The notes below the pieces were generated by a model. The model searched no databases. It was given only the letters and a program-made list of their open reading frames with translations, and had not been told where the DNA came from. Positions 1 through 33,732 of a DNA stretch of 64,000 bases are shown in pieces. The DNA comes from Candidatus Parcubacteria bacterium (lineage in GTDB: Bacteria > Patescibacteriota > Minisyncoccia > Phycocordibacterales > UBA918). Position 1 is the stretch's first letter, and each line of letters opens with the position of its first letter. The position numbers were made by a program, and so were the translations under genes. The stretch covers positions 67,858 to 131,857 of the forward strand of contig JBJOPW010000001.1 in assembly GCA_046050355.1 (NCBI GenBank). Direction: 5' to 3'.

Positions 1-1117
1 CTCGGCAGGCGGAAACCGAACTCAACGAGCGTGTCCTTGCGACTACGGTCGCCCGCATACATACCGCCAATCTGGGGCAAGGTGACGTGTGACTCGTCTA
101 CAATGGTGAGGAAGTCTGGTGTGCCATCTTCCTTATGCGGGAAGTAGTCGAGGAGTGTATAGGGGGCCTCACCGGGCTTGCGACGGTCAAAGTGGCGCGA
201 GTAGTTTTCGATACCATTGCAGTACCCTACTTCGCGAATGAGTGCGAGGTCGTGCTCGGTGCGACGACGAAGACGCTCAGCTTCGAGAATTTTGCCGTCT
301 TTCTTGAACTGTTCGAGCTGGAGCTGCAGTTCGAGTTTGATATCTTCGTAGGCCACTTTGCGTTCATCATCGGGTGAGACGAAGTGTTTGGCCGGAAAGA
401 GGAAAAAAACCTCGGGCTCTTCAATAATGGCACGGGTAATACTATCAATCTTCGTGATACCAGAGACGGTGTTTCCATCAAAACCAAGGCGGTAGATGGC
501 CCGTTCGTTGGTTGGCATGATCTCGATAGTATTACCAACGGCACGAAACTGTCCTGGTGTCAGGTCGGCATTAGTACGCTCAAAATAGAGATCAATGAGC
601 GTACGGAGCATATCAGCGCGGGTGGTACTGTATCCCTTTCCTATCTTGAGGTGCTTCTTTTTATATTCTGCTGGCGAACCAAGACCATAGATACACGACA
701 CCGACGCCACAATGATCACATCGCTCCTCGTGAGAAGTGCTTGGGTTGAAGCGTGACGGAGGCGGTCGATTTCTTCGTTGATCTGTGCTTCTTTCTCGAT
801 ATAGGTATCACTCGTCGGCATGTAGGCCTCCGGTTGGTAGTAGTCGTAGTACGAGACGAAGTAGTGCACAGCATTATTTGGAAAAAAGTCCTTGTATTCT
901 TGTGCCAGCTGCGCCGCGAGGGTCTTGTTGTGCGCAATGACGAGGGTGGGCTTTTGAATCTGCGCAATCACATTCGCTCCCGTGAAGGTCTTACCCGAAC
1001 CAGTGACACCAAGGAGTGTCTGGTGCCGCAACCCACCACGAACACCCGCCACCAGCCGCTCTATGGCTTTTGGCTGGTCTCCGGCAGGAGTCTTTTCGGT
1101 TGAGAGTTCAAATTGCA
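1..1117 (-). CDS. uvrB: Excinuclease ABC subunit B (UvrB), N-terminal ~370 aa; the gene continues past the window start
   Basis: Own translation of the minus strand from ATG (complement of 1115..1117): MQFELSTEKTPAGDQPKAIERLVAGV...LLGVTGSGKTFTGANVIAQ (Walker A)...NAVHYFVSYYDYYQPEAYMP (classic UvrB signature). Absent from the ORF track because it runs off the window edge. The plus-strand ORFs 135..377, 384..749 and 753..1103 are antisense artefacts of it. Confidence 0.85.
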
Positions 1118-1159
1118 TGTATACGAGTATACCGTGCTACAAACAATTTAAAAAGCACA

Positions 1160-1182
1160 AAGACGAGGTCTTGCCTCGTCTT
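1160..1182. repeat. REP-like palindromic element (AAGACGAGG-TCTTG-CCTCGTCTT) just upstream of the RAYT gene
   Basis: Perfect 9-bp inverted repeat read directly in the sequence. The same GACGAGG...CCTCGTC core recurs at 1705..1723, 1775..1797 and 28716..28734. It sits 32 nt upstream of the IS200-like (RAYT) ORF. Confidence 0.6.
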
Positions 1183-1704
1183 TTCGAAAAGTGTTGTATA
1201 ATACTGTGAGTGTATGGCGATAAGAAAGTTTTCATTCGCACCTGACGAAATATTCCATTGCTATAACCGTGGGGTTGATAAACGAGCAGTTTTTGAAGAT
1301 AAGCAGGACTACGGGTATTTTTTAAAGTTGTTGCGATATTTTAATACATCGGCAGTGAGAGGTAATTTAAGGTCAGTAGAAAATAAAGAGCCTATAAATC
1401 CTCCAGTAACTATACTTGCCTACTGTCTTCTTCCAAACCATTATCATCTTTTAGTACGCTGTAATGATGTTGAGGGAGGTTTGTCAAAATACATGCAGCG
1501 TGTTGCAGGCGGATATACGATGTATTTTAATCAAAAGAATAGTCGATCGGGTTCTCTATTTCAGGGTAAGTTTAAGGCAAATCACGTTGATACCGATAGT
1601 TATTTACGGAACATCTTAGCGTATGTTGGGTTTAATTTTATTGTTCATGATATAAATGAAAAAAGTCTGTATCGAGCGAGCATCAATTATAAAGACGAGT
1701 TAGT

Positions 1705-1723
1705 ACGAGGTCTTGCCTCGTCC
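1705..1723. repeat. REP-like palindrome copy (ACGAGGTCTTGCCTCGTCC) inside the 3' part of the RAYT ORF
   Basis: Same core as 1160..1182, seen directly. Confidence 0.5.
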
Positions 1724-1774
1724 TTTTCAGAAGAACAAATGCTCGAAGTTATTGAAATAATAAAAGAAATGAGA

Positions 1775-1797
1775 AAGACGAGGCAAGACCTCGTCTT
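1775..1797. repeat. REP-like palindrome copy, inverted orientation (AAGACGAGGCAAGACCTCGTCTT), inside the 3' end of the RAYT ORF
   Basis: Perfect 9-bp stem with the loop in reverse-complement orientation relative to the 1160 copy. Confidence 0.5.
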
Positions 1798-1841
1798 TGA
1801 GCATGAGAAGGTGGCTGGTGTGAAGAGTGTGGAGGATATTT

Positions 1842-3098
1842 CTACTTAGCTAATAACTGCTCACGTAAATTCTTGGTGAAATTGACGATGAAGTGGAGGT
1901 TGTGGATGGAGGCGAGGTGTGGGCCGAGTATTTCTCCAGCGCGGAAGAGGTGGGCGACATAGGCCTTCGTATACTTCCCGGCTACATAGCCGGTTGAAAG
2001 TGGATCAAGGAGTGAATGATCGTCTTTATACTGCGCATTACGAAGACTGATCTTTTTGGTCTCGGGGTAGGTGAAGGTACCACAGGGGGTAGTGATCATA
2101 TTACCAGTCATCACATAGATGGTGCCAGTGCGCCCAATACGGGTCGGGGCGACACAGTCAAAGGTATCACAACCCTGGAGCACGCCCTGGACGATGTCTT
2201 CTGGCTCGCCAATACCGAGGAGATGGCGGGGTTTATCGATTGGGAGGATTTCGTTGACGACCCGGAGCGAATCACCAAGATCGTTTTTACTAAAGCTCCC
2301 ACCAATACCAAAACCATCAAAGTCCATATCGCTGAGGATACGCGCACTTTCTTGGCGCAAGTCCATAAAGCGTCCACCTTGCACTACACCGTAGAGACCT
2401 TGTTTCTTGAGCGCTTCGTAGTTTTGCTTGTGGGCCATGATACTGCGCTTCGCCCAACGATGAGTACGATCAGACGCTTCCTTTTGGTACTCGTAGTCCG
2501 CGGTGGGACTGGTACACTCATCAAAGGCGATGATAATATCAGCGCCAATGGCGTGCTGGATATCGATACTGCGTTCGGCGGTGAAGCGATGCATCGAACC
2601 GTCGAGATGTGACGTGAAGGTTACTCCTTCTTCATCGATGATACAGAGCTTGCCGTGGTCTTCAGCGAACTTTTGACTATAGACATTAAGACCCTTCTTG
2701 ACTGGGAGTTCGGTTTCGTTTTCGTCTACTTCCCCTTTGGCGAACTTCGTCACCCCTTTGCCAAAAGCGGCGCCAAGACTAAAGACCTGAAACCCGCCGG
2801 AGTCGGTCATCGTCGGTGTCGGCCACTTGGCAAATTCATTGAGGCCACCACCAGCTTTGATTACCTCATGTCCAGGCTGGAGAAAGAGGTGGTAGGTGTT
2901 CGCGAGCGTTACTTCGTTACCGACGTACTGCGTGAGATCTTCGGGCATGAGACTCTTCACACTGGCTTTGGTTCCGACCACTACAAAGGCTGGTGTATGA
3001 ATATCACCATGCGGCGTATGAATAATGCCAGCGCGGGCGAGATTGCCCTTACCTACTGCCTCGGTCTCAAACCAGACCGGTCTCGTGTTGTCAGCCAT
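1842..3098 (-). CDS. tgt: Queuine tRNA-ribosyltransferase (tRNA-guanine transglycosylase)
   Basis: ORF 1842..3191. The likely true start is the internal Met of MADNTRPVWFETEA at 3098. Motifs: GGLNEFAKWPTPTMTDSGGFQVFSLG (the TDSGG substrate-binding region) and GCDTFDCVAPTRIGRTG (the FDCV.PTR motif). The C-terminal Zn-site cysteines appear substituted (see findings). It overlaps the RAYT stop convergently by 8 nt. Confidence 0.85.
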   Translation of the reverse strand: MADNTRPVWFETEAVGKGNLARAGIIHTPHGDIHTPAFVVVGTKASVKSLMPEDLTQYVGNEVTLANTYHLFLQPGHEVIKAGGGLNEFAKWPTPTMTDSGGFQVFSLGAAFGKGVTKFAKGEVDENETELPVKKGLNVYSQKFAEDHGKLCIIDEEGVTFTSHLDGSMHRFTAERSIDIQHAIGADIIIAFDECTSPTADYEYQKEASDRTHRWAKRSIMAHKQNYEALKKQGLYGVVQGGRFMDLRQESARILSDMDFDGFGIGGSFSKNDLGDSLRVVNEILPIDKPRHLLGIGEPEDIVQGVLQGCDTFDCVAPTRIGRTGTIYVMTGNMITTPCGTFTYPETKKISLRNAQYKDDHSLLDPLSTGYVAGKYTKAYVAHLFRAGEILGPHLASIHNLHFIVNFTKNLREQLLAK

Positions 3099-10173: not shown

Positions 10174-13100
10174 TTAGTAAACAGGAACGGCTATATAGAC
10201 AATTTCGGTGGTATAACTAGCGGCTGGTTGCATCCCAGTCACCTTTACTCTATATACAATATCATGGCTGTCATTGGCTGGTAATGGACTATACATAACT
10301 TCAGCCACATCAGTATGGAGACCAGCATAACTATCAAGCGGAGCAAATCGCGTAGAACCACCCGTGAGCGTTGCATCTGTTGTATGGTAGCCGACACAAC
10401 CAGATGCGGTAGTGATACAACCAACCGCCCAAGCAGCCGGCACAGCATTAGTTCCGGTGACGGACGGGATTGGTGTCCCATAGCCATTTTGTAACTGCTG
10501 GCGCGCAAAAGACAGCACTCGGTAGCCATCAGTAGCATTAGTGGTGACCGCCAACCGGTGAGCTGCCACCGCATCAGTGTCAATTGGTATTGAACCGAAG
10601 GTTACCGTTGCCGGGGTAGTGGCTACCGTCGTAACTACACCAGCAGTCGTCGTACCACTTGGAAGTCCACTAATACTCAGTGTCAATTTTGGTGTCTCTG
10701 CAACAAGACTTGGGTATGATTCCCCGCTTGCTGGCGCAACCGGTGCGTCTTCAAAGACTTCGTAGAGTCTGAAGTAGTACACTGCCCCCGCCCGAGCAGC
10801 TGCATGACGGAGGTAAAAGGCAAATTCAGTCGACGCACCGGCTAGATGGGTGTACCCAGTCGTATAGGTTGGCGACTCGTTGTGTGTACCACAACCACTG
10901 CCTGTACCACCCGTACAGCTGTTAGCATCAGTCAGCACTTTAGTGGTAATAGTGGCATTATCAGTACCACCACCGTCGACATAACACCACGTTGAGGTGG
11001 CCGTACAAGCTGCTTGCGTCACGACATCTTTTGGCGACGTAAATGTTGGCGACTCGTCGTATTGGAGTTTAAATTTTATGTCTTGGCCCACCACATTTTT
11101 TCGTTGACCAACCGTAACGCGTAAAGTAAATTCATTTCCATTTTGTACCTCAATTGGTGAAATAATTTCACCAGAAAGTGGACTAAGGGGGGTTTCGCTT
11201 TCAGCATCATCATAAAAGCGCCAACGTTTTGTTTGTGGTGAATAGCCGGCTGTGCGGATTTGCGGGTAGTTAAAATAACCGTCTAATGGTGTACCGTCAC
11301 TCCGTACCATACGGAAACAGTAGGTATTACGTGAGATTGCACCATTGTGTTGAATAAACCAATCGTATTCTACGTCTTCACCCGGATCAACAATATAAGG
11401 GTTAGCTGGTGCCGGATTTTCTTCAACTAAACTACCAGCTCGATCAGCTACCGAAATTAACAAATCGCCTCCGGTTGGCGGGTTGGTACTTAAATTTGTA
11501 CCGTTTGTTGTCCCTGTGGCAGCGTACCCTCGCCAGATACCACTACCAGCCGCAGTGTCAAGATCACTCCAGGTACCAACGGTCGAACAGGAAGTAGCAC
11601 GCAATCCATACTGCAACTTAAAATCATACAGACCAGCCGGTAGGTTTGCGTTGGCTACCCGTAACGTCATGCGTAGTCGCACCAGGTCACCATCTCCGAG
11701 TGGTTCGTCGGCAATTGTAATGGGGTTGTTTTCACCCAAATCTGAGACACCAACCGGCCATGGGTCGGTGGGCTTCAGGGCATTATTATTAACATAGAAC
11801 CGATAGTAATTTTGACGAACAGCGAGTCCAGAAACTGGCCATTCCACAATTTCGGTACGATACGTCATTTCCCCTGAGGCTTCACTGCGCCACAGTTCAT
11901 AGGTGGACGTGCTCGTAATACGAGCACCGGCCATTGGTAAGGGAAAGGTCGTATTAGCCCCCACGACGCGGGTATTAGCAAATATTGATGCATTGTTTGT
12001 CGCTTCAATTGGTGAGAAGATTGAGATTGATAACGCTACTGGCTCAGTACCGGCGTTGGTCGTTCCATTTGTTCGTTGTACCTCCATAGCACCGGCACTG
12101 GTCTGCAGGTTTTCAATAATCCAAGCCACTGAAGTATGTCCGCTCGGTGCAGTAGCAGCGCCCTCAAGTCGGTATGATACGGCGCCAATACTCGACAGCC
12201 AAACTTCGTGGCCAAAGTTGTTGACGTTGCCTTGAGCGGTCATGCGTTTTTGTGTGTGTATAAACGAACGCGCTAAACTATTGAGCGTTGTTGGTATTGA
12301 TTCTGTTTCTACGGTTCCAACTGCAGTATACGTATGTTCACTTCGTTGCACCTGCCAATTAATGCCGGTAAATTCAACCACGGCATAGCTCACATTGATA
12401 ATAGCCCCACCGGCTCCACGATTAAAAACGGGTGCCGTACTGGTGGGACTCCAACTTGATGTTACTTGCCCGGCATAATACACGTTACGCGCAACATCAC
12501 GGTTCTCAATACCAGTTATAAAGACCACCACATCAGTATTATCGGTAATGGTACCAAGGGCAGTGCCGGTGGCTATCAAGGCGGCACTCGCCATATTGAC
12601 ACTCCCCACCCCTCTTACCTTCATTTCATTGTCGGTGCCAGCATCCCCAATAAACTCAACGATTTCCCAGTTCACCCGTGTATTTCCGGTGGCAGCTGGT
12701 GGCCGAGAAATGGTAAAATTGCTCGGTAAGTTAGCCGCCGAAATGTACGCGGTGATATCATCGGCATTTTGCGCTCCTCCACCAGCTGTCGTGCGTCCCG
12801 GCCCAGTGTTGTGGGTGTCAGTGAGACGGACAAAGGCAGTCGTTGTGCTCGCTGGAGCAGTATAGTCAACACCAGCGGTTAGCGTTTGTGACGTACCGGC
12901 GATGGTAGCAGTGCCACGCTGCACTTTAAAATCACGCTTGGGAGCAGTGGTTAGTTCTGCATAGTTACTATAGGTTAAGGGTTCTCCATTATTGGTGAGT
13001 CTAAAGCAATACGTAGTATTATAAGCAGTAATATTGGTAGAGGTAATACTAAATTCATACTCAGCAAATTCAGTTGTACTCATGACCAGAGCAGAGGTAG

Positions 13101-25682: not shown

Positions 25683-26729
25683 CTACGTTAAACGAGAACG
25701 ACGGTTATGAATAAAGAATAAGATGACAATAAGTACTGCGAAGATTGGCAGCAGGATCGATAGCTTGTGTGCTATTGATAGTCCCATAAAGCCGTAACCA
25801 GCGACCTGTAGCGTGCCATATGGCAATATACTCAAGTTGAGTTCACCCTCTTGTTTGACATCCTCGCCATTTTTAATGGTATACCGCGCGATATAGCTAC
25901 CAGCCGGTAACCGGGTCGGGAGTGAGGCACTAATTTCTTCTATCGCGTAGGGAGCGATTTTTTTGAGACGACCCGTATGGTGGGTTTCCTCGAGTAATAC
26001 GGCGCCAGCGCGATCATAAATACGAAACTCAACATCTGACGGAGCAACATCAATGTTACCGGTGTTCTCAATCAACATCGAAAAATTAATCTTGCCAGGG
26101 AAATACAACCAACCAACTTTCTTTCCTTCATTGAGATCACTGACAGTAATCTTACGGACGCGGAAATCTTCGATGACTTTATCAATGACTGATAGATCGA
26201 CATCAACTTGAGCACCCAGAGAAATGCTTACGACACCCTCAGCGACCTGATCATCAGCTGGCAGCGTACGGATACGAATCTTGCCGGTATAGTCTGCAAA
26301 ATCTGCCTCAGCTGGAACCTTGATACGTACTGTCATGGGCACTTTTTGTTGTCCACGTGGCAAGGCGATACTTTGACCTTCAACAATCTCTATCCAATCC
26401 TGAATCTCTGGTGCGTCAATTGTAATTTCGGCTTTGAGATTGTCACTTGGGTTACCACGAACCAGGAGAATCTGCTGTTCGTAGGTTGAGTTGCGTGTCA
26501 GGCTGGTGTTCCGAACATACGGCGGGGTAATACCAAAACTAGCGTAACTTAAGGCTGGCCAAAAAGCCAAAGTTGCGAGCACACACAAAACAAAAGAACG
26601 AAGCAAAAACGTTGGCAAAATTACCTTCATGCGATACTCACTATTATCGAAAATATTAGCCAAAAAAGCAATAACCACTGTTCGGATAACAGTGGTTATT
26701 GCTTGTTGTATAGAGTGATGGTTTACCAA
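25683..26729 (-). CDS. Hypothetical surface protein with a signal peptide and a C-terminal TM anchor
   Basis: N-terminal hydrophobic segment, a beta-rich ectodomain, C-terminal TM LSILLPIFAVLIVILFFI followed by HNRRSRLT. Confidence 0.5.
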   Translation of the reverse strand: MVNHHSIQQAITTVIRTVVIAFLANIFDNSEYRMKVILPTFLLRSFVLCVLATLAFWPALSYASFGITPPYVRNTSLTRNSTYEQQILLVRGNPSDNLKAEITIDAPEIQDWIEIVEGQSIALPRGQQKVPMTVRIKVPAEADFADYTGKIRIRTLPADDQVAEGVVSISLGAQVDVDLSVIDKVIEDFRVRKITVSDLNEGKKVGWLYFPGKINFSMLIENTGNIDVAPSDVEFRIYDRAGAVLLEETHHTGRLKKIAPYAIEEISASLPTRLPAGSYIARYTIKNGEDVKQEGELNLSILPYGTLQVAGYGFMGLSIAHKLSILLPIFAVLIVILFFIHNRRSRLT

Positions 26730-28600
26730 CTTAATGGATTTGAGATTGCACCAGTGAAAGTGTTTTGTCCGGTGTATGATCCAGCGAGGGTGATCGTACC
26801 TGGTACCGCAATACCCCAGTAGGTTGTACCTGATGTTGGTGTCGAGGTCGCAGTTGGTTTTGGAATCTGAATCTGTAACGTTGCCGGTGACGTAGTTGGT
26901 TGAAGCGCTGCACCAGAGGCATAGGCAACCGCAGAAGTAGCATACCGCTGCTCACCTTGTGGAATTGTCGACGTGGCAGAAACTGGGCAAGGGTTAGTGG
27001 TACTAAAGGTCGTACACATAGACTCACCACCAAGGAGTTGATTAAGACCAGTGTTACCAAGGACTCGTAGTGATGACGATGAAGTCAAGTTTGGCATGTT
27101 TGTCCCCGGCTCAAGCTGATCGTACGCAATGGTACTCGTCAGGAGATCAATGGCCACGAGACTCAAGAGTTCTACCGGACTGGTGGTAGTCGCCATGGTA
27201 CCAGTGGCATTATCATCATCGACACCAGCTACACCAGCACTCCAAGCCTGCGTATCAAATGGTGTTCCAGAAACAGTTGGATCAGCAATGAACCAGAGTG
27301 GGAAGGAACATGAGTAACTGATCGTATCGTCAGTGTTGCCGGTACACGATGTTGTGGAAGCTGTACATGAAAGGTTCCAAACTGAAGCAGCTACTCCACT
27401 TGGATAACAGTTGTTTGCATTGTAAGCTCCAGCTGATCCATCACAAGTTGTTGTTCCAACCGCACTACGGAAGATAGAGACCACCGAACGCTGGATTTCA
27501 TCAGCCGCACCGCCACCAACCGCATCACAACTGTTAGCATCAGCCACCACAAAATCAAGCGTAAAACCTGTTGTTTGTGAACCCGGCACTGTAAGCACTA
27601 TATCAAGTCCACCATTAAGAGAAATGGTACCACCGGCCACTGTTGGTGCGACGTTGCTGACTTCAAAGGTAACGTTTGTACCTTGTGCACCACCTGATGC
27701 TTCGTGACCGTGCTCATCATAAAGATACGCAAATGCGTTGTAGTTAGTGTCCTGAAGAATAGTAGCCATTACTCGCGAGGTGGTGGCGTTAGCAAACGCA
27801 ATCGAGAGTGATGATGAAGCAACAGTATCACCGGCGCCACAACTGTTCGTACTGGTACTATATGAAGCCGAACCACAAACTACCAGGTAAAGTGCGTCAT
27901 CAGTATCTACAACGTCTGGGTCAGTAGAGGTTGATCTAAAGAGTAGTGTACCGCCTGGATTAACTGGACCATCATTACTAAACCCAGTGAAAACTGGTCG
28001 ACGATTCACATTAAATGGTGACGAGTTCGTCGCATTTGTACCCTGTGAGAAAGTGGTACTACAACGGGGGTTTACCGGATCATCGTCACACACCCAGGCG
28101 TACCAGTCGTTTGATTCAGCAAAGGGCGCAACTTCTACGGTCGTGGTGGCAGCACGGGCTTCAGTGCCACTTGGCGTGCCCGTAGAAACCGCCCAGCGTG
28201 TACCAGCACTACAGACAGGAGCCGCAGTACCTAAGGTGGTTGTCGACTGTTGAGCAGTTGGGGTGGCGTTTGTACTACACACAATGAGGAAGTATGGTGC
28301 ACCGTTGGCATCGCTTGCTGTTCCGACCCAAGCTACTTGATCACCTGAGTTCGTTGGCGAGGTTGAAGATGAGCTGATTAACTCACGACCCTCTTGTCCA
28401 GCCACCCAGGTTGGCGGCGTGTTAAGTACGGTCAACGTGGTCGTTGCAGTACTGGTCGCTTCGGCCTTTTCAAGCTCAGTTTTACCAATGTTAAGAATAA
28501 AGATGAAGGTAAAAATGAGCAACCCTGATAATGCTGATAATACGGTGATTTTCCCAGCGGTCTCTACATACCGTGGAAAGTTATTTTTGTTGTACAACAT
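26723..28600 (-). CDS. Thr/Ser-rich secreted or anchored surface protein (625 aa)
   Basis: N-terminal TM (ITVLSALSGLLIFTFIFIL). Extended T/S-rich low-complexity beta-rich sequence with many Cys pairs. 7-nt overlap with the downstream gene. Confidence 0.55.
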   Translation of the reverse strand: MLYNKNNFPRYVETAGKITVLSALSGLLIFTFIFILNIGKTELEKAEATSTATTTLTVLNTPPTWVAGQEGRELISSSSTSPTNSGDQVAWVGTASDANGAPYFLIVCSTNATPTAQQSTTTLGTAAPVCSAGTRWAVSTGTPSGTEARAATTTVEVAPFAESNDWYAWVCDDDPVNPRCSTTFSQGTNATNSSPFNVNRRPVFTGFSNDGPVNPGGTLLFRSTSTDPDVVDTDDALYLVVCGSASYSTSTNSCGAGDTVASSSLSIAFANATTSRVMATILQDTNYNAFAYLYDEHGHEASGGAQGTNVTFEVSNVAPTVAGGTISLNGGLDIVLTVPGSQTTGFTLDFVVADANSCDAVGGGAADEIQRSVVSIFRSAVGTTTCDGSAGAYNANNCYPSGVAASVWNLSCTASTTSCTGNTDDTISYSCSFPLWFIADPTVSGTPFDTQAWSAGVAGVDDDNATGTMATTTSPVELLSLVAIDLLTSTIAYDQLEPGTNMPNLTSSSSLRVLGNTGLNQLLGGESMCTTFSTTNPCPVSATSTIPQGEQRYATSAVAYASGAALQPTTSPATLQIQIPKPTATSTPTSGTTYWGIAVPGTITLAGSYTGQNTFTGAISNPLSW

Positions 28601-28703
28601 ACTAAATACCTATATATTGTATCGGATAAAGGCCTGAGTTATGCACTAGTTATGCACAGTAAGCAACCTCTGTGACAGCTGGTGAGTTTTAGTCACTGCG
28701 ATA

Positions 28704-28737
28704 ATTTTTAAAAAAGACGAGGTCGGACCTCGTCCTT
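28704..28737 (-). terminator. Intrinsic terminator on the minus strand, using a REP-like palindrome (GACGAGGTC-G-GACCTCGTC) followed by TTTTTT
   Basis: Perfect 9-bp palindrome at 28716..28734. On the minus strand it is immediately followed by a U6 run (plus-strand AAAAAA at 28710..28715). It lies 3' (in the minus sense) of the FtsX gene and the repeat or ncRNA region. Confidence 0.45.
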
Positions 28738-28790
28738 AGGGGCACCAAGAAACTAAAGTTCCTCAAATAAAGTGAGCGTCTGGTGGCCAA

Positions 28791-28940
28791 GAGACGTGGA
28801 CTGGGCCATTAGGGATAGTGAGAAATGGGGTGGGACCCATTTCTCAAGACTCATTGTGGATATTTGTGAGTGATAACGAAACAAATAGCCCAATGAGTGG
28901 ACAGCCTCTGTAAGAAGTCAGCTCACGGAAATTCGTCAGG
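28791..28940. ncRNA. Candidate structured RNA, tandem unit 1
   Basis: ~150-nt unit repeated at 28970..29120 (~80% identity). Three helices: 28820..28828/28837..28845, 28849..28856/28891..28898 and 28862..28867/28881..28886. Each is preserved in unit 2 by compensatory substitutions. Strand undetermined. Confidence 0.35.
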
Positions 28941-28969
28941 TAAGCATAAAGAGAGTGTGCGGTAGCTGT

Positions 28970-29120
28970 GAGACGTGGACTGGGCCATTAGGTGAGAAAA
29001 CGTGGGACGTTTTCGCAAGACTCATTGCGTAATTTTATGAGTGGTAACGAAATAAAATTGCCAATGAGTAGACAGTTTCTGTAAGAAATAGGCCCAGCTC
29101 ACGGAAATTCGCAATAGTCG
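28970..29120. ncRNA. Candidate structured RNA, tandem unit 2
   Basis: Helices 28994..29002/29008..29016 (GAGAAAACG/CGTTTTCGC), 29020..29027/29062..29069 (ACTCATTG/CAATGAGT) and 29031..29037/29053..29059 (AATTTTA/TAAAATT). These covary with unit 1. A further partial copy of the 3' motif TTCGCAATAGTCGG lies at 29190..29205. Confidence 0.35.
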
Positions 29121-29231
29121 GCGAAGAAGATTCAAGAAACATAGTGATTCGGCCTAGAAAAGACATTAGGAATAGTCTTCTCTAGGTAAGTTCGCAATAG
29201 TCGGCTTGCGCTTCGTTTGCTCACTTAATTT

Positions 29232-30461
29232 CTATTCATAGCGAATCGCATCCAGTGGATTTAGAGACGAAGCCCGACGGGCTGGGAAGATTCCAGTCAA
29301 GTACCCCACCGCCGCTGAGAAGAGAGCAATAAATACGAGGAAGCCAATCGGGAAAGAAAAGAGCTTCACTGCCTGCCCGCCAAATTGCCCCGCCACAATA
29401 TTCAAAAAGACATTGATGGTCACCCCTAAACCTACCCCCATCACGATGCCACTAATACCGCCAAGGAAGCCTACTACCACCGACTCTGACACGAAGAGGT
29501 ACTTCACATCATTTGGTGAGGCCCCAATCGTACGCATAATACCGATCTCTTTGGTACGCTCAAGGAGGGTCACCGTCATGGTATTGAACATACCAATGGC
29601 TGACACTACTAGCGCAATACCACCGAAGGTAGCAAGTACGATCTGAATTCCTTGAAAGATTTTGGAAGCTTGCTCCACGGTCTTTGAGAGTGCTGTCACC
29701 CGGTAGCCAGCGTCGATAAGTTTATTTTCTACAATCGGTAAATTCTCGTTGGTATCAACGCGTACTTGAATCCGTTCAAATTCTTCAATACCGACATAGT
29801 TGCGTAGTTCAGGCAACATCATCATCGCATTAAGGACACCTTCCTCTTTGGTAATGCCACGAACAGTGTATTCCTTATCAATAATGACTTCAGTGTTGTT
29901 GTTAGTCCCATCATTAGCCGGAATCAAAATACGAAATGATACTTTTTCACCAACAAAGGTGGCTGGATCATCAACTCCAAACAGCTTTAGTACGGCTGGC
30001 GAAAGCATCACAGAATTCGTATCACCAGCGTCAGCATCGGTAAAGACAGTGCCTTCAGTGGCCGATACGCCGGCATACCGCAGATAAGGTGGCTCCACAC
30101 CTTGAATAAAGACGTTCCCGGTGAGACCTTTGTAGGTGACGAGAGCCGGAAAGCGAGCGAGCGGAGCGGCGTCGAGTACCTCAGGCATATTTTCAAAATC
30201 AGCCACGGTCTCGGTGGTCAATTTTAGGTTTTGCGCACCAGTAGCTGAGACACCGAGCGACAAAAGGGTCTCACCAAACACGATCTGTTCTAGAATGATT
30301 TGCTGCAAACCAAACCCAAGACCAACGAGAATCACCACGGCCCCTGTCCCCACACCCATACCCAAAATCGTGAGCCACGTACGAAGCGGGTTGGTTTTGA
30401 ACATACGCGTCGAAAGCTGCGCCAGATCCTGAACTCGCATAGTACTTACATTATGACACAA
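29232..30461 (-). CDS. ABC transporter permease, MacB/FtsX family (N-terminal TM, large periplasmic domain, C-terminal FtsX 3-TM bundle)
   Basis: 409 aa. TM1 LRTWLTILGMGVGTGAVVILVGLGFGL, a ~230-aa periplasmic core, then a C-terminal FtsX-like region (IALVVSAIGMFNTMTVTLLERTKEIGIMRTIGASPNDV...). Confidence 0.8.
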   Translation of the reverse strand: MCHNVSTMRVQDLAQLSTRMFKTNPLRTWLTILGMGVGTGAVVILVGLGFGLQQIILEQIVFGETLLSLGVSATGAQNLKLTTETVADFENMPEVLDAAPLARFPALVTYKGLTGNVFIQGVEPPYLRYAGVSATEGTVFTDADAGDTNSVMLSPAVLKLFGVDDPATFVGEKVSFRILIPANDGTNNNTEVIIDKEYTVRGITKEEGVLNAMMMLPELRNYVGIEEFERIQVRVDTNENLPIVENKLIDAGYRVTALSKTVEQASKIFQGIQIVLATFGGIALVVSAIGMFNTMTVTLLERTKEIGIMRTIGASPNDVKYLFVSESVVVGFLGGISGIVMGVGLGVTINVFLNIVAGQFGGQAVKLFSFPIGFLVFIALFSAAVGYLTGIFPARRASSLNPLDAIRYE

Positions 30462-30577: not shown

Positions 30578-31900
30578 CTAACTTTTGTAACTAACATCTA
30601 CCCCTTGTGCAATCAACTTTTCAAAGTAACGAGTCATGTCATCAGCCTCCTTCTCAGACAAAGAGAGACCTTTGCTCCGGATCCCTTCCATTAATCGTGT
30701 ATTAAAGTCTTTCTCTTCGACGACACCAGTCACTCGGTCCGCCACTAGTTCAACGAGGTTAGCATCTTGCTCTTTACTAAGCTTCATACGGTATACCTCT
30801 TGGAGGTGATCACGGAGTCGCTCAGCGAGTTTATGTTGACTAAAGAAAACACCGGCATTGTCCTTCTTGGCACGAAAACGGCGAATATCATCTGATTGTT
30901 CAATCAATTTTTCACTCCGTTTGGCCATATCTTTGGCTACCGACTCTGGCACCTCCACTCCCCCGCGTTCTAATGGCAATACAAGTGCATTTATAAAGGC
31001 GTCGCGATCAATTTTGCCTTTAATGAAGAAACCAACCGCACGTTCAAGTCGTTGGATTTGGTCAAAGGTGTAGTCTTGTGTGAGGTAGTTTACAAGACTT
31101 TTTACCCGCAGAGTTTCTACCGAATCATACGGGAAGAGTCGTGCCAGCTGCTCGAGTTCAGTCACAATCGTCTCCCCTTCACGTACTGGCTTAATCTGTT
31201 TACGTTGCGGGTTGACCACTTCGCGCACAATAAAGCCATCTTTGAGATAGTACACCCGGTGCGCATACGAAAGATGCGCAGCGTTGTGTGACACCATAAT
31301 AATGGTACGACGGTCAAAGGTGTTAATTTCGTCAATTTTATCCATTACTTGCTGAGTCGAAATCGAGTCAAGGTTACCGGTTGGTTCGTCCGCCAGAAGA
31401 ATCTTTGGATCATTCACCATACTCCGAGCTACTGATACACGCTGTTGCTGTCCACCGGAGAGCATCGAGGGGATTTTGTGTGACACATGCCCTACCCCAA
31501 AACGATCGAGGAGCGATTGGGCTCGTCGATCACGGGTCTGTTTGTCGGCATTACAAAAAATCATTGGTAGAGCTACATTATCAAGCACCGACAGCGACCC
31601 AATGAGGTTAAACGACTGGAAGATAATACCCATCACGTAGCGCTGGAAGTACACACGTTCTGAAGGTGGATAGGAATAGATATCATCCCCTCGAATAAGG
31701 AGTGTTCCGTCTCCTGGTGGCAAAGAACCCTGAATTGAATACATGAGTGTCGACTTCCCTGACCCTGAGGCCCCGAAGAGAATGATGTACTCACCTTCAT
31801 AGATGTCCGTGTTCACATTTTGGAGCGCACGAAATTCGTTACTCTTGCCTTTATTATAAATAATCGACAAGTCACGACAAACAATCAGAGGCTTCGCCAT
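30578..31900 (-). CDS. ABC transporter ATP-binding protein (MacB/FtsE/LolD-like) with a ~200-aa C-terminal extension
   Basis: Walker [10 protein letters not shown], signature [14 protein letters not shown], Walker [14 protein letters not shown]-loop MVSHN. Residues ~230-440 are a charged helical extension with no recognisable domain. Confidence 0.85.
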
Positions 31901-32256
31901 ACGTAGCTACATTATGACACAGCATAACAATTGAAGACGTCTCTCATATCCCCATTACCAAATCAAAACAAATAAGATGTGTGATTTGTTTCAGCATGAG
32001 TCTGCTAGGATTTACAAACTTGATGCAGTTCGAGGCGGACGAGTAAAATTTTGTGAGGCGTATTAAATATACGTTTAATAAAATTTTATGAAGTCCAACA
32101 AAGAAATGCGCTAGTTTGGAGATTCTAGTTGGTAATGTTCTTAACCCAACCAAAAAGTAAAACAACAACCGTGAGGTTGTATGATTTTACTTTGTTCCAA
32201 CTTTCTATTCCTAATGAAAGTTCTGGAACCTTTTGGTGGATTAAGATATAACTAAT

Positions 32257-33732
32257 TTAATTAGTTATATTCTTAACCCAACCAAAAGTAGACTCAAAGT
32301 TCTCAAGAATCAAATCAATAATATTCTTCTCTTGAATCGGTGTAAAGAGCACGAAGTTTTCAGACTGTATGGTATTTTCAGCTTCATCAGTACAGTTAAG
32401 CCAGAATTGGTAGACAGTCGCCGGCGCAAAATCAGTAATAACCTCAACGTGGTTGGTATTATATTCAAGTACTTCTTTTTCGAGCACAATCGGTTCAACT
32501 CCACCCGCCACTCCTTCACGATAGGTCATAATACATGAAGCCGGTTCATCAGTATTCCATTCAACGATTGTCTGTACCCGTGATTCTCCCCCCGGGAAAA
32601 TAGTAGATTCATTGGTCACATTTGAGATCAGCGGAGCCGAATTATCGCGTACCGTAATAAATTGAATCGGTTGACTACGAACGCGGTCTCCGCCAGAGTT
32701 TTCGGCAATCACAAACGCGACATAGCGAGTACCCAGAGTAAGATCAGAGAGACGCATCTGGTGTGTAGTGGCTAAAGTTGGTCGCCCTACAGAATTCTGG
32801 GTACCAAGGGTGAGATCTTGGTATTCAATGAGCGCTTTCGCCGGCACGGTTGTATCCCACGCTAGGGTGGCAGCATTTTCTTCTACCTTGACGATGCGTA
32901 AGTTACGAATGTCGGGTAACGAGGCTTTGGTTTTAAACGTGTACGTTCTACTTTCACCAGTAATTTGGTACGAATCGGTGGAACGAACTTGAAAACTGTA
33001 CTCAGTAAATGGCTCAAGACCAATGAGCTTAATCTCGTGGTCAGTGACCGCACCAGCGGTTGACGATTGTGAGAAATCAAAATTGGTACCATCAAAGCCG
33101 TTAGTTCGGGCAAAACGAACTTCTGAATTGGCTTCACGATCAGTCACCCAGGACACAGTTGCTGAAGTAGTTTCTGGTACTACCGTTGGTGGACCAACAA
33201 TGGTCAAATCTTCAGTAATACCCTGAATCGCTTTGACAGTTTCGTTAAGAATTTCCTGGAGCTGTTGTGGGCTTTGGATTTGCTGAATTTGTTCAACAAT
33301 CTCTTGCGGTGTATTAGTTTGTCCGGGTCCAACCCCACTACCTGAGCCACTGTCTGAAGATTTCTCGCTATCGACATCTATTTTGTAGTCAGCGGAGATA
33401 CCTTGGTTACCATCAGCATCAGCGGAAATCACTCGAAAATAGTACGTACGACCAGGGTCGAGGTTTTCGAGGGTCACCGAATGACTGGTACGATTTGCTA
33501 CTGGCACACGGACAACTCCCAGATCTGGATTGAGACTGTAATTTACTGCCGAATCCGCGCTTTCATTCGTCTTCCAAGTAATCGTTACCGTTGTTTCGGT
33601 GGATGAAGCAACTTTTACTTCGGTGATTTCTGGTGCTTTTGTATCACTGGTTTGCGCTATAAGCGGGTTACTCGGTAACGCAAAAACACCGAGGAAGAGG
33701 AGGAGTAGCGGAAATAAACGCAACATAATCAT
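32257..33732 (-). CDS. Secreted protein with tandem fibronectin type III-like domains
   Basis: Signal peptide. Repeated FN3-like units (TETTVTITWKTNESADSAVNYSL...DPGRTYYFRVISADADGNQG; SATVSWVTDREANSEVRFART; ENAATLAWDTTVPAKALIEYQ; TIVEWNTDEPASCIMTYRE). Confidence 0.7.
   Translation of the reverse strand: MIMLRLFPLLLLFLGVFALPSNPLIAQTSDTKAPEITEVKVASSTETTVTITWKTNESADSAVNYSLNPDLGVVRVPVANRTSHSVTLENLDPGRTYYFRVISADADGNQGISADYKIDVDSEKSSDSGSGSGVGPGQTNTPQEIVEQIQQIQSPQQLQEILNETVKAIQGITEDLTIVGPPTVVPETTSATVSWVTDREANSEVRFARTNGFDGTNFDFSQSSTAGAVTDHEIKLIGLEPFTEYSFQVRSTDSYQITGESRTYTFKTKASLPDIRNLRIVKVEENAATLAWDTTVPAKALIEYQDLTLGTQNSVGRPTLATTHQMRLSDLTLGTRYVAFVIAENSGGDRVRSQPIQFITVRDNSAPLISNVTNESTIFPGGESRVQTIVEWNTDEPASCIMTYREGVAGGVEPIVLEKEVLEYNTNHVEVITDFAPATVYQFWLNCTDEAENTIQSENFVLFTPIQEKNIIDLILENFESTFGWVKNITN

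Follow-up and report, generated by a model that had tools for sequence, protein, structure and literature searches.

REPtrons, units in which the gene for a tyrosine transposase associated with repetitive extragenic palindromes (a REP-associated tyrosine transposase, RAYT) is flanked by its cognate REPs, are said to include E. coli yafM/rayT and the Pseudomonas RAYTs, in work attributed to Nunvar in 2010, Bertels & Rainey in 2011 and Ton-Hoang in 2012 and with 4ER8 as the structure. Such units have already been described, as have TIRtrons, in which a tyrosine transposase is flanked by low-copy inverted repeats that are sometimes self-complementary and overlap the gene ends (PMC3733652; PMC6006769). 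A GT[AG]G motif is indispensable for E. coli TnpA-REP (PMC8266576), class-2 enzymes carry the signature Y---NP where IS200 transposases have Y---Q (PMC6006769), and the repeats that flank genes of Bertels groups 1 and 4 are low-copy, with 12-14 occurrences per replicon (PMC5581495). REPs that lie in frame inside the tnpA-REP gene itself are also on record, for TnpA-Y1 subclass 2.4 (Bertels group 4), together with "double-foot" palindromes (PMC6006769). Here we analyse a RAYT-like gene of the TnpA-Y1 superfamily and the short DNA hairpins in and around it, in a 64-kb stretch of contig JBJOPW010000001.1 from a Candidatus Parcubacteria bacterium ("the window"). With a probability of roughly 0.78, we consider the locus to be a REPtron/TIRtron-like unit, consisting of a single-copy, vertically inherited ("domesticated") gene for a RAYT-type HUH-Y1 protein and its cognate DNA hairpin. 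No description of this clade in Patescibacteria was found in the searchable literature.

The gene and its hairpins in the window

The RAYT-like gene occupies positions 1214..1849 of the plus strand, encodes 211 amino acids and lies between two minus-strand genes, uvrB and tgt. A preliminary description of this DNA had reported a palindrome just upstream of the gene, twice within it in opposite orientations and once more about 27 kb away, and all of these copies are indeed present: three sites (1162-1180, 1777-1795 and 28716-28734) carry an exact GACGAGG-N5-CCTCGTC, and a fourth, 1704-1722, departs from it by a single base (TACGAGG). These four matches compare with 0.02 expected in the 64-kb window, and a search with the 18-base consensus allowing up to three mismatches returns the same four sites and nothing more, vs 0.01 expected. 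The upstream hairpin, U (AAAGACGAGG-TCTTG-CCTCGTCTTT, 1159..1183), has a 10-bp stem, lies between the divergent promoters of uvrB and the RAYT-like gene, and folds as DNA with -10.3 kcal/mol (z = -3.9). Inside the open reading frame (ORF), hairpin B (tACGAGG-TCTTG-CCTCGTc, 1704..1722) has the same orientation as U and encodes V164-R-G-L-A-S-S170, the centre of its loop being one codon. The terminal hairpin T (1774..1798) is the exact reverse complement of U, with a 10-bp stem and the loop CAAGA, and encodes K188-T-R-Q-D-L-V-F195. Together U and T make up a 29-nt inverted repeat, 97% complementary, that brackets the gene. B and T form a REPIN-like inverted doublet (1705..1794, arms 92% complementary), which encodes the C-terminal helical region (residues 164-195) and can fold into one long hairpin (DNA fold -22.2 kcal/mol, z = -5.4). 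Perfect GC-rich hairpins number 15 in the window, and three of them are of the type that belongs to the RAYT-like gene.

The protein has a HUH-Y1 nuclease fold with its catalytic signature, and its nearest solved relative is the REP-associated enzyme TnpA-REP. In the Pfam scan it matches PF01797 (Y1_Tnp) with 29.7 bits, above the gathering cut-off of 23; the match is confined to positions 41-118, about the last two-thirds of the profile, and no domain beyond Y1_Tnp is found in the 211 residues. The ORF thus scores against the Y1 transposase profile to which comparison had been suggested, and the HuH motif NHYHLLV that had been pointed out is present at residues 75-81. An AlphaFold (AF2) model built from 113 homologues has a mean predicted local distance difference test score (pLDDT) of 85.7 and a predicted template modelling score (pTM) of 0.81. 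Its best Foldseek match in the PDB is 4ER8, TnpA-REP with a bound REP hairpin (E = 3e-6, template modelling (TM) score 0.65, root-mean-square deviation 3.2 Å), and structures of the IS608, ISDra2 and IS200 transposases rank below it (2VJV, 2A6M, 2XM3, 2F4F; E about 1e-4). In the alignment of the 113 homologues, N75, H76 and H78 of the HUH motif N75-H76-Y77-H78 (codons 1436..1447, plus strand) are invariant, as are Y137 and N141 of the motif Y137-x3-N141-x3-H145; the "W" motif, here F116-Q117, is likewise invariant in the aligned homologues. Y137, the putative catalytic tyrosine (codon 1622..1624, plus strand), lies in model helix 128-139. Aligning a profile of the family to 4ER8 puts H-x-H and Y-x3-N-x3-H in register, the counterpart of the latter in 4ER8 being YIYINPVKH. 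A protein database search returned 657 homologues, typically of 195-197 amino acids, and the few that are named are attributed to Patescibacteria or Paceibacteria. A DnaA-like C-terminal domain was considered and dropped (match to 2JMP with E = 0.3, not significant), and PADLOC gave no defence-system match for the protein.

The gene also keeps its place in related genomes. The same slot, with uvrB on the minus strand, the RAYT-like gene on the plus strand and tgt on the minus strand, is common to the window and four other loci (L002, L003, L127 and L128, the last two being metagenomic), and homologues at 74% and 68% identity show the slot as in the window, followed by the same run of downstream genes. 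Across the syntenic loci, identity to the window proteins is 86-97% for tgt, 84-90% for uvrB, 61-76% for FKBP and 68-74% for the RAYT-like protein. The 64-kb window has one copy of the RAYT-like gene. With a conserved slot and a single copy in the window, the gene behaves like one settled in the chromosome and unlike an active insertion sequence. The REP family of this genome had been called "domesticated or mobile"; for the gene, the first term fits these observations and the second does not. A more distant homologue, at 47% identity (L005), has a different genomic context, and in the longer run the family has therefore moved.

The ORF had further been described as more AT-rich than the flanking uvrB and tgt, and the computed base composition bears this out. 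Its GC content is 0.376 vs 0.479 in the rest of the window, local values being 0.36-0.40 vs about 0.48-0.53 in the flanks, and only 0.8% of 636-nt window segments are equally AT-rich. Low GC might be read as a sign of horizontal transfer or recent acquisition. We rejected this reading because in 46/46 homologous loci with enough flanking DNA (L002-L206), the syntenic ones included, the GC content of the RAYT-like gene is below that of the flanks, by a mean of 8.5 points. Low GC is therefore a trait of the family and no evidence of recent acquisition; we speculate that it might aid the extrusion of hairpins.

On the promoter side, U is followed by 13 nt, a -10 box TATAAT preceded by TG (1197..1202, plus strand), 11 nt and the ATG, and there is no Shine-Dalgarno sequence. 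This compact layout recurs in the family: 68/85 genes have a -10-like hexamer whose end is 3-13 nt ahead of the ATG (6-7 nt in 42/85), a Shine-Dalgarno-like motif occurs in 2/85, and in roughly half of the genes scored the hairpin's 3' end is 0-2 nt away from the -10 box. With the -10 box so near the ATG, the mRNA is leaderless or nearly so, and the hairpin fills the promoter spacer and the -35 region. From this layout we infer that U would have a regulatory effect on the promoter. At the other end of the gene, T straddles or follows the stop codon in distant homologues and other subfamilies. In the subfamily of the window the ORF reads through T, and orthologues stop 1-6 codons later; the window ORF itself continues for 17 codons past T into the end of tgt. 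This read-through tail (E196..T211 and the stop codon, 1799..1849, plus strand) shares its last 8 nt with the 3' end of tgt, is not conserved and is predicted to be disordered (pLDDT <50 for residues 197-211). The suggestion that the 3' end of the ORF is REP-derived coding sequence gains support from this shift of the stop codon relative to T.

Hairpin copies across the family

For the comparison with relatives, 80 further homologous loci were taken from metagenomes and each gene zone was scanned for perfect hairpins. Almost every one of the approximately 85 homologous loci has a hairpin of its own, for example ACTTGGAGGC, TACAAGGT, TGCAGGC, GGGGAAGGC or CCCGAGGT, with stems that are unlike between loci and matching within one locus. 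At least two copies of one same-core perfect hairpin are present in the gene zone of 66/86 homologous genes vs 3/174 control windows. The copies recur at the same sites: U, 30-60 nt upstream of the ATG and occupied in most homologous loci; A, at about codons 52-62; B, at about codons 145-170; and T, at or just after the stop codon. The commonest site patterns are U+T (24), U+A+T (17) and U+B+T (12). Copies at A, which precede the HuH motif, occur in relatives only; both in-ORF copies of the window come after the catalytic tyrosine.

The five syntenic loci allow the copies to be compared base by base. Their three hairpin sites align column for column, with U and B direct and T inverted in each. 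Within each locus the loops change in step at all three sites (TCTTG, TCCTG, TTTAA, TCTCG, with the reverse complement at T), and differences in the stems are compensatory. The loop changes alter the protein (e.g. GLA/RQDL vs GLT/RLNL), and DNA-level matching is therefore kept at the cost of amino-acid change. The same coupling is visible more widely. Both peptides are present in 69 homologues, and in 67 of these the residue encoded by the B loop (168) and the one encoded by the T loop (191) go together as complementary bases would require, A168 with Q/R191, S168 with K191 and T168 with L191; none of 10,000 shuffles was as good, in a test that ignores phylogeny, and at least three distinct states are represented.

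The in-ORF hairpins are also set in a particular reading phase. In 44/49 cases (27/29 at A and 17/20 at B) the loop centre is a single codon between GGY and RCC; at T the phase is mixed. The resulting peptides are LGGSTSKL, LQGSTLL, FRGSASK and DAGKACT in other loci and VRGLASS in the window. Since the hairpins are read in frame, the apparent protein motifs V164-R165-G-x-x-S169 and R187-x-x-R-x-D-L are a translated DNA palindrome and its reverse complement. V164, R165, S169 and R187 are at least 90% conserved in the aligned homologues, and CGA GGT in B is invariant at the DNA level across the five syntenic loci. In the model, the B and T peptides fall in helices 162-170 and 173-202.

Copies of the cognate hairpin are also scattered beyond the gene zone. 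In 465 kb of flanking DNA we count 15 (3.2 per 100 kb), vs an expectation of 0.7 obtained by searching every locus for hairpins that belong to other loci. The likeness of these dispersed copies to the cognate hairpin extends into its wider flanks, and roughly one in two lies outside long ORFs. The REP/RAYT association proposed in the preliminary description is thus supported on two sides, by a HUH-Y1 fold nearest to TnpA-REP and by inverted hairpin copies that co-vary with the gene over about 85 loci.

Two loci of the family carry two divergent paralogues a few kb apart on one contig each, L169 (2520-3233 and 8041-8730) and L180 (2680-3306 and 6515-7183). The paralogues of L180 each have a distinct hairpin, one of the TTGGGGGT type and the other of the AAAGGT/GAAGGT type, and in L169 a recurring cognate hairpin is seen in one paralogue only. 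This pattern resembles known multi-RAYT genomes.

Comparison with described systems and rival explanations

In its architecture the locus is most readily compared with REPtrons. It shares with them a single-copy, vertically inherited HUH-Y1 gene between inverted copies of a gene-specific palindrome, further copies of that palindrome elsewhere, and an inverted doublet that can fold into a long hairpin. It shares with TnpA-REP in particular the best fold match and the aligned spacing of Y-x3-N-x3-H. Unlike REPtrons, it has FQ instead of WQ/WE, a leaderless mRNA and a very sparse dispersed family, and its hairpins are in the promoter and inside the ORF, whereas those of REPtrons are only in flanking extragenic DNA. 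Subclass 2.4 is similar in length (about 194 amino acids) and also has cognate palindromes inside its own ORF without a break in frame, and double-foot-like perfect palindromes are found in some orthologues here (e.g. GTAG...CTAC in L002). On the other hand, the REP insertions of subclass 2.4 lie between HuH and Y, whereas the copies described here occupy fixed, codon-phased sites before HuH (relatives only) or after Y, in conserved and confidently modelled helices. The motifs differ as well, NHYH / FQ / YVxxN (YVGFNF in the window) here vs NH[IFV]H / WQ / YIxNNP in subclass 2.4, as does the host phylum.

By motif, NH[YF]H and FQ place subclass 2.1 nearest among the classes of Quentin et al. 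2018 (PMC6006769), and YIHLNP is present in more distant homologous loci of our family. Subclass 2.1 corresponds to the TIRtrons/TIRYT (Di Nocera et al. 2013, PMC3733652), with which the locus has in common terminal inverted repeats that overlap the gene ends, are in some cases self-complementary and have a low or moderate copy number. Unlike TIRYT, it has no GGGGWSAS, its repeats being short perfect hairpins of the GACGAGG type that are also found inside the ORF. In addition, subclass 2.1 proteins are about 238 amino acids long (the window protein has 211), with a C-terminal helix-turn-helix-like domain and Y[IV]HLNP, and reportedly lack REP-like structures. With IS200 (IS200/IS605 family, subclass 1.1) the locus shares the HUH-Y1 fold and, ahead of a small gene, a hairpin that could block incoming transcription. 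Unlike this locus, IS200 is multi-copy and mobile, with a protein of about 150 amino acids, Y---Q and end hairpins on one strand; here we find Y---N, 195-211 amino acids, a single copy in the window and synteny. Strict membership fails for the RAYT equivalog, subclass 2.4, TIRYT (2.1) and IS200 alike, and the locus is REPtron-like on all architectural criteria examined. The clade shares the REPtron/TIRtron principle and differs in its motifs, its foot, the codon-phased copies in the ORF, the promoter-side copy, the leaderless gene and the host phylum.

Several observations weigh against a REPtron/TIRtron-like unit. We know of no biochemical activity for the RAYT-like clade. The score against the NCBIfam model REP_Tyr_transpos (NF047646), 41.7 bits with E = 1e-10, is below the 80-bit cut-off for the RAYT equivalog, and a profile of 30 homologues searched against PDB sequences gives 4ER8 as its sole match with a marginal E = 0.02. 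The Y motif of the window, Y137-V-G-F-N141-F, and of its subfamily is without the proline of the class-2 signature. The window hairpin has AGAC where the GT[AG]G foot would be. Orthologues have GTAC at this position (L003, L127 and L128) or GTAG (the T copy of L002), and elsewhere the foot is mostly unrelated. The dispersed copies are few, with one extra in the 64-kb window and 15 in the 465 kb from relatives. The fixed geometry of a REPtron applies to the five syntenic loci, that is to the window subfamily; in the wider family loop orientation, which we tried as a marker of hairpin orientation, is inconsistent between loci. Finally, a reference-genome scan for AAAGACGAGG-N5-CCTCGTC gave at least 120 matches, those listed being in unrelated taxa and phyla, and among the matches listed none adjoins a homologue of the window protein. 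The palindrome core of 14-20 bases is thus not specific on its own, being a common terminator-like palindrome in unrelated phyla.

If the locus is a REPtron/TIRtron-like unit, its working can be sketched by analogy with E. coli TnpA-REP and the TnpA of IS200/IS605. The protein would bind its cognate hairpin on single-stranded DNA and would cut and rejoin beside it through Y137, with H76 and H78 holding a metal ion. Its presumed targets in the gene would be the three copies, U between the divergent promoters, B in codons 164-170 and T, inverted, in codons 188-195, the B+T doublet being at once coding sequence of the C-terminal helices. Copies that are alike within a locus and drift between lineages point to homogenisation or selection at the DNA level, and the simplest cause of their likeness would be that the encoded enzyme uses each of them as a substrate or a binding site. 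A few further copies are scattered in the genome, and the one at 28714-28736, with its T-run, probably terminates a minus-strand transcript, as T probably does for tgt.

A stronger version of this proposal, which we put forward tentatively and consider unlikely, holds that the promoter copy and the in-frame copies are not tolerated insertions and are instead obligatory self-recognition sites, the nuclease acting on the hairpins of its own gene in a module in which site and protein co-evolve. If so, the enzyme would act on hairpins extruded from its own unusually AT-rich gene, and would thereby set its expression or power a conversion process by which U, B and T stay identical. In E. coli TnpA-REP the REP is contacted by the C-terminal tail; here the C-terminal helices are encoded by B and T, and any alteration of the hairpin would therefore also change the protein just where it may recognise that hairpin. 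Site and protein would then form a coupled co-evolution module that is conserved across Patescibacteria and retained in minimal genomes through use by the host.

A different explanation, quite improbable in our view, is that the hairpins are ordinary regulatory signals, such as terminators, insulators or mRNA stabilisers for the neighbours or for the gene itself, and not substrates of the protein. There is some evidence for such roles. On the minus strand both T and U are scored as terminator-like, T at a distance of 44 nt past the tgt stop codon. The dispersed copy in the window (AAGACGAGG-TCGGA-CCTCGTCCT, 28714..28736, minus strand) is followed on that strand by T6; its site is intergenic, bounded by the end of one gene at 29232 and the start of another at 28600. 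It is 1/18 specified bases off the consensus and has a different loop (TCGGA) and a DNA fold with z = -3.4. The copy at 28716-28734 had been described as turned by a U-run into an apparent minus-strand terminator, and both the TTTTTT and the intergenic position are there; read from the sequence, it is an apparent intrinsic terminator and probably ends a minus-strand transcript. In addition, the palindrome core is isolated and terminator-like in many unrelated phyla among the matches listed in the reference-genome scan. Against this explanation, generic terminators need no identity within a locus, and would not account for concerted change at three or four sites, loop bases included, at the price of amino-acid changes, or for fixed in-frame ORF positions that recur across about 85 loci. 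Proteins of the HUH-Y1 fold recognise exactly such hairpins (4ER8). Terminator-like sites in the first 20 kb of the window are no commoner than in shuffled sequence, and with so few classical terminator hairpins around, the stem that the 28.7-kb copy shares with the gene is unlikely to be a coincidence.

We give less credence still to an autonomous insertion sequence of the IS200 type, in which U and T would be the left-end and right-end hairpins and an active transposase would move the whole 640-bp unit; this we regard as very improbable. The layout is IS200-like, a small Y1 gene having one hairpin ahead of it and one at its 3' end, the fold also matches the TnpA proteins of IS608, ISDra2 and IS200, and the more distant homologue L005 is in a different genomic context. 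Such an element would not be expected to keep the same uvrB-tgt slot in five genomes whose RAYT proteins are just 68-74% identical. It is present once in the window, and where two paralogues share a contig they are divergent and, in L180, carry different hairpins. The protein has Y---N and not Y---Q (PMC6006769) and is about 45 amino acids longer, the ends are perfect, mutually inverted palindromes and not same-strand imperfect hairpins with guide tetranucleotides, and the top structural match is TnpA-REP and no insertion sequence transposase. Hardly credible, finally, is the idea that the in-ORF palindromes are by-products of the peptide motifs VRGLAS and TRQDL and resemble the upstream hairpin by coincidence: R165, S169 and R187 are at least 90% conserved and the segments are in confidently modelled helices, but the two peptides are encoded by reverse-complementary DNA with a third copy in non-coding DNA, the codons are fixed (always CGA GGT, in a gene rich in AT), other subfamilies have different peptides there (LGGSTSKL, LQGSTLL, DAGKACT) that match the non-coding hairpin of their locus, and the identities of residues 168 and 191 are linked in the way that paired bases would require.

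The clade bears on the question of why single-copy RAYT genes are retained and how they serve their hosts, since it shows a pared-down version of the system, in very small genomes, with very few dispersed hairpins and with promoter and coding sequence interwoven with the gene's own hairpin. The covariation of loops within a locus, which forces amino-acid changes, indicates that the matching of copies at the DNA level is maintained over long periods. There are consequences for annotation as well. Members of the family carry the label "transposase" although their behaviour is that of stable residents of the chromosome, their low GC is no ground for assuming recent transfer, and two conserved "protein motifs" of the family are DNA palindromes.

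Neighbouring genes and further structured elements

The 5' part of uvrB (1..1118, minus strand, start codon 1118..1116) is the divergent neighbour of the RAYT-like gene and was identified from its translation and from tblastn identity of 84-90% to the uvrB of the four other syntenic loci; Pfam UvrB domains are present in orthologous genes. A -10-like TATACT (1126..1131, minus strand) 7 nt upstream of its ATG is a candidate leaderless promoter. As read from the letters, uvrB appears to be leaderless too, and the block GAGTATACC (1119-1137, minus strand) is kept in all five syntenic loci. The convergent neighbour, tgt (1842..3098, minus strand), was called as a gene with Pfam TGT and is 86-97% identical to the tgt of the syntenic loci. 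Two of these loci have extra DNA between the RAYT-like gene and tgt: in L003 a 90-amino-acid ORF with a separate GC-rich, terminator-like hairpin GACGATGGGGC...GCCCCATCGTC (10605-10630), and in L128 a gap of about 660 nt (10589-11253). The uvrB-tgt slot is therefore not static.

The matches listed in the reference-genome scan include at least eight contigs of one Hyphomicrobiales metagenome-assembled genome, CAZIXJ01 (L012, L018, L026, L035, L054, L055, L064 and L075), and many loci from Pirellulales metagenome-assembled genomes. This suggests unrelated, abundant repeat families with the same palindrome core; no homologue of the window protein is encoded in any of the stretches retrieved. The label "CGTC-tagged REP" (Di Nocera 2013) was tried for the window hairpin and dropped, as the tag is not conserved in orthologues and is treated as coincidental.

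At gathering thresholds Rfam gave no match in the whole window, and no tRNA was found in it. Between the genes at 26723-28600 and 29232-30461 there are two tandem units of about 175 nt (28767-28925 and 28946-29096), roughly 80% identical and directly followed on the minus strand by the REP-like hairpin at 28716-28734. They are without an Rfam match, also when 28550-29300 is searched at E up to 1. Strong folding is computed for them on either strand (z = -5.8 and -5.0), two-sided changes between the copies preserve six base pairs, and the units may be an undescribed structured RNA in duplicate. Finally, the second most AT-rich stretch of the window, at 31650-32250 (GC about 0.35-0.38), takes in the 3' end of an ABC-ATPase-like gene (30578-31900) and the gap that separates it from the next gene (32257-33732).

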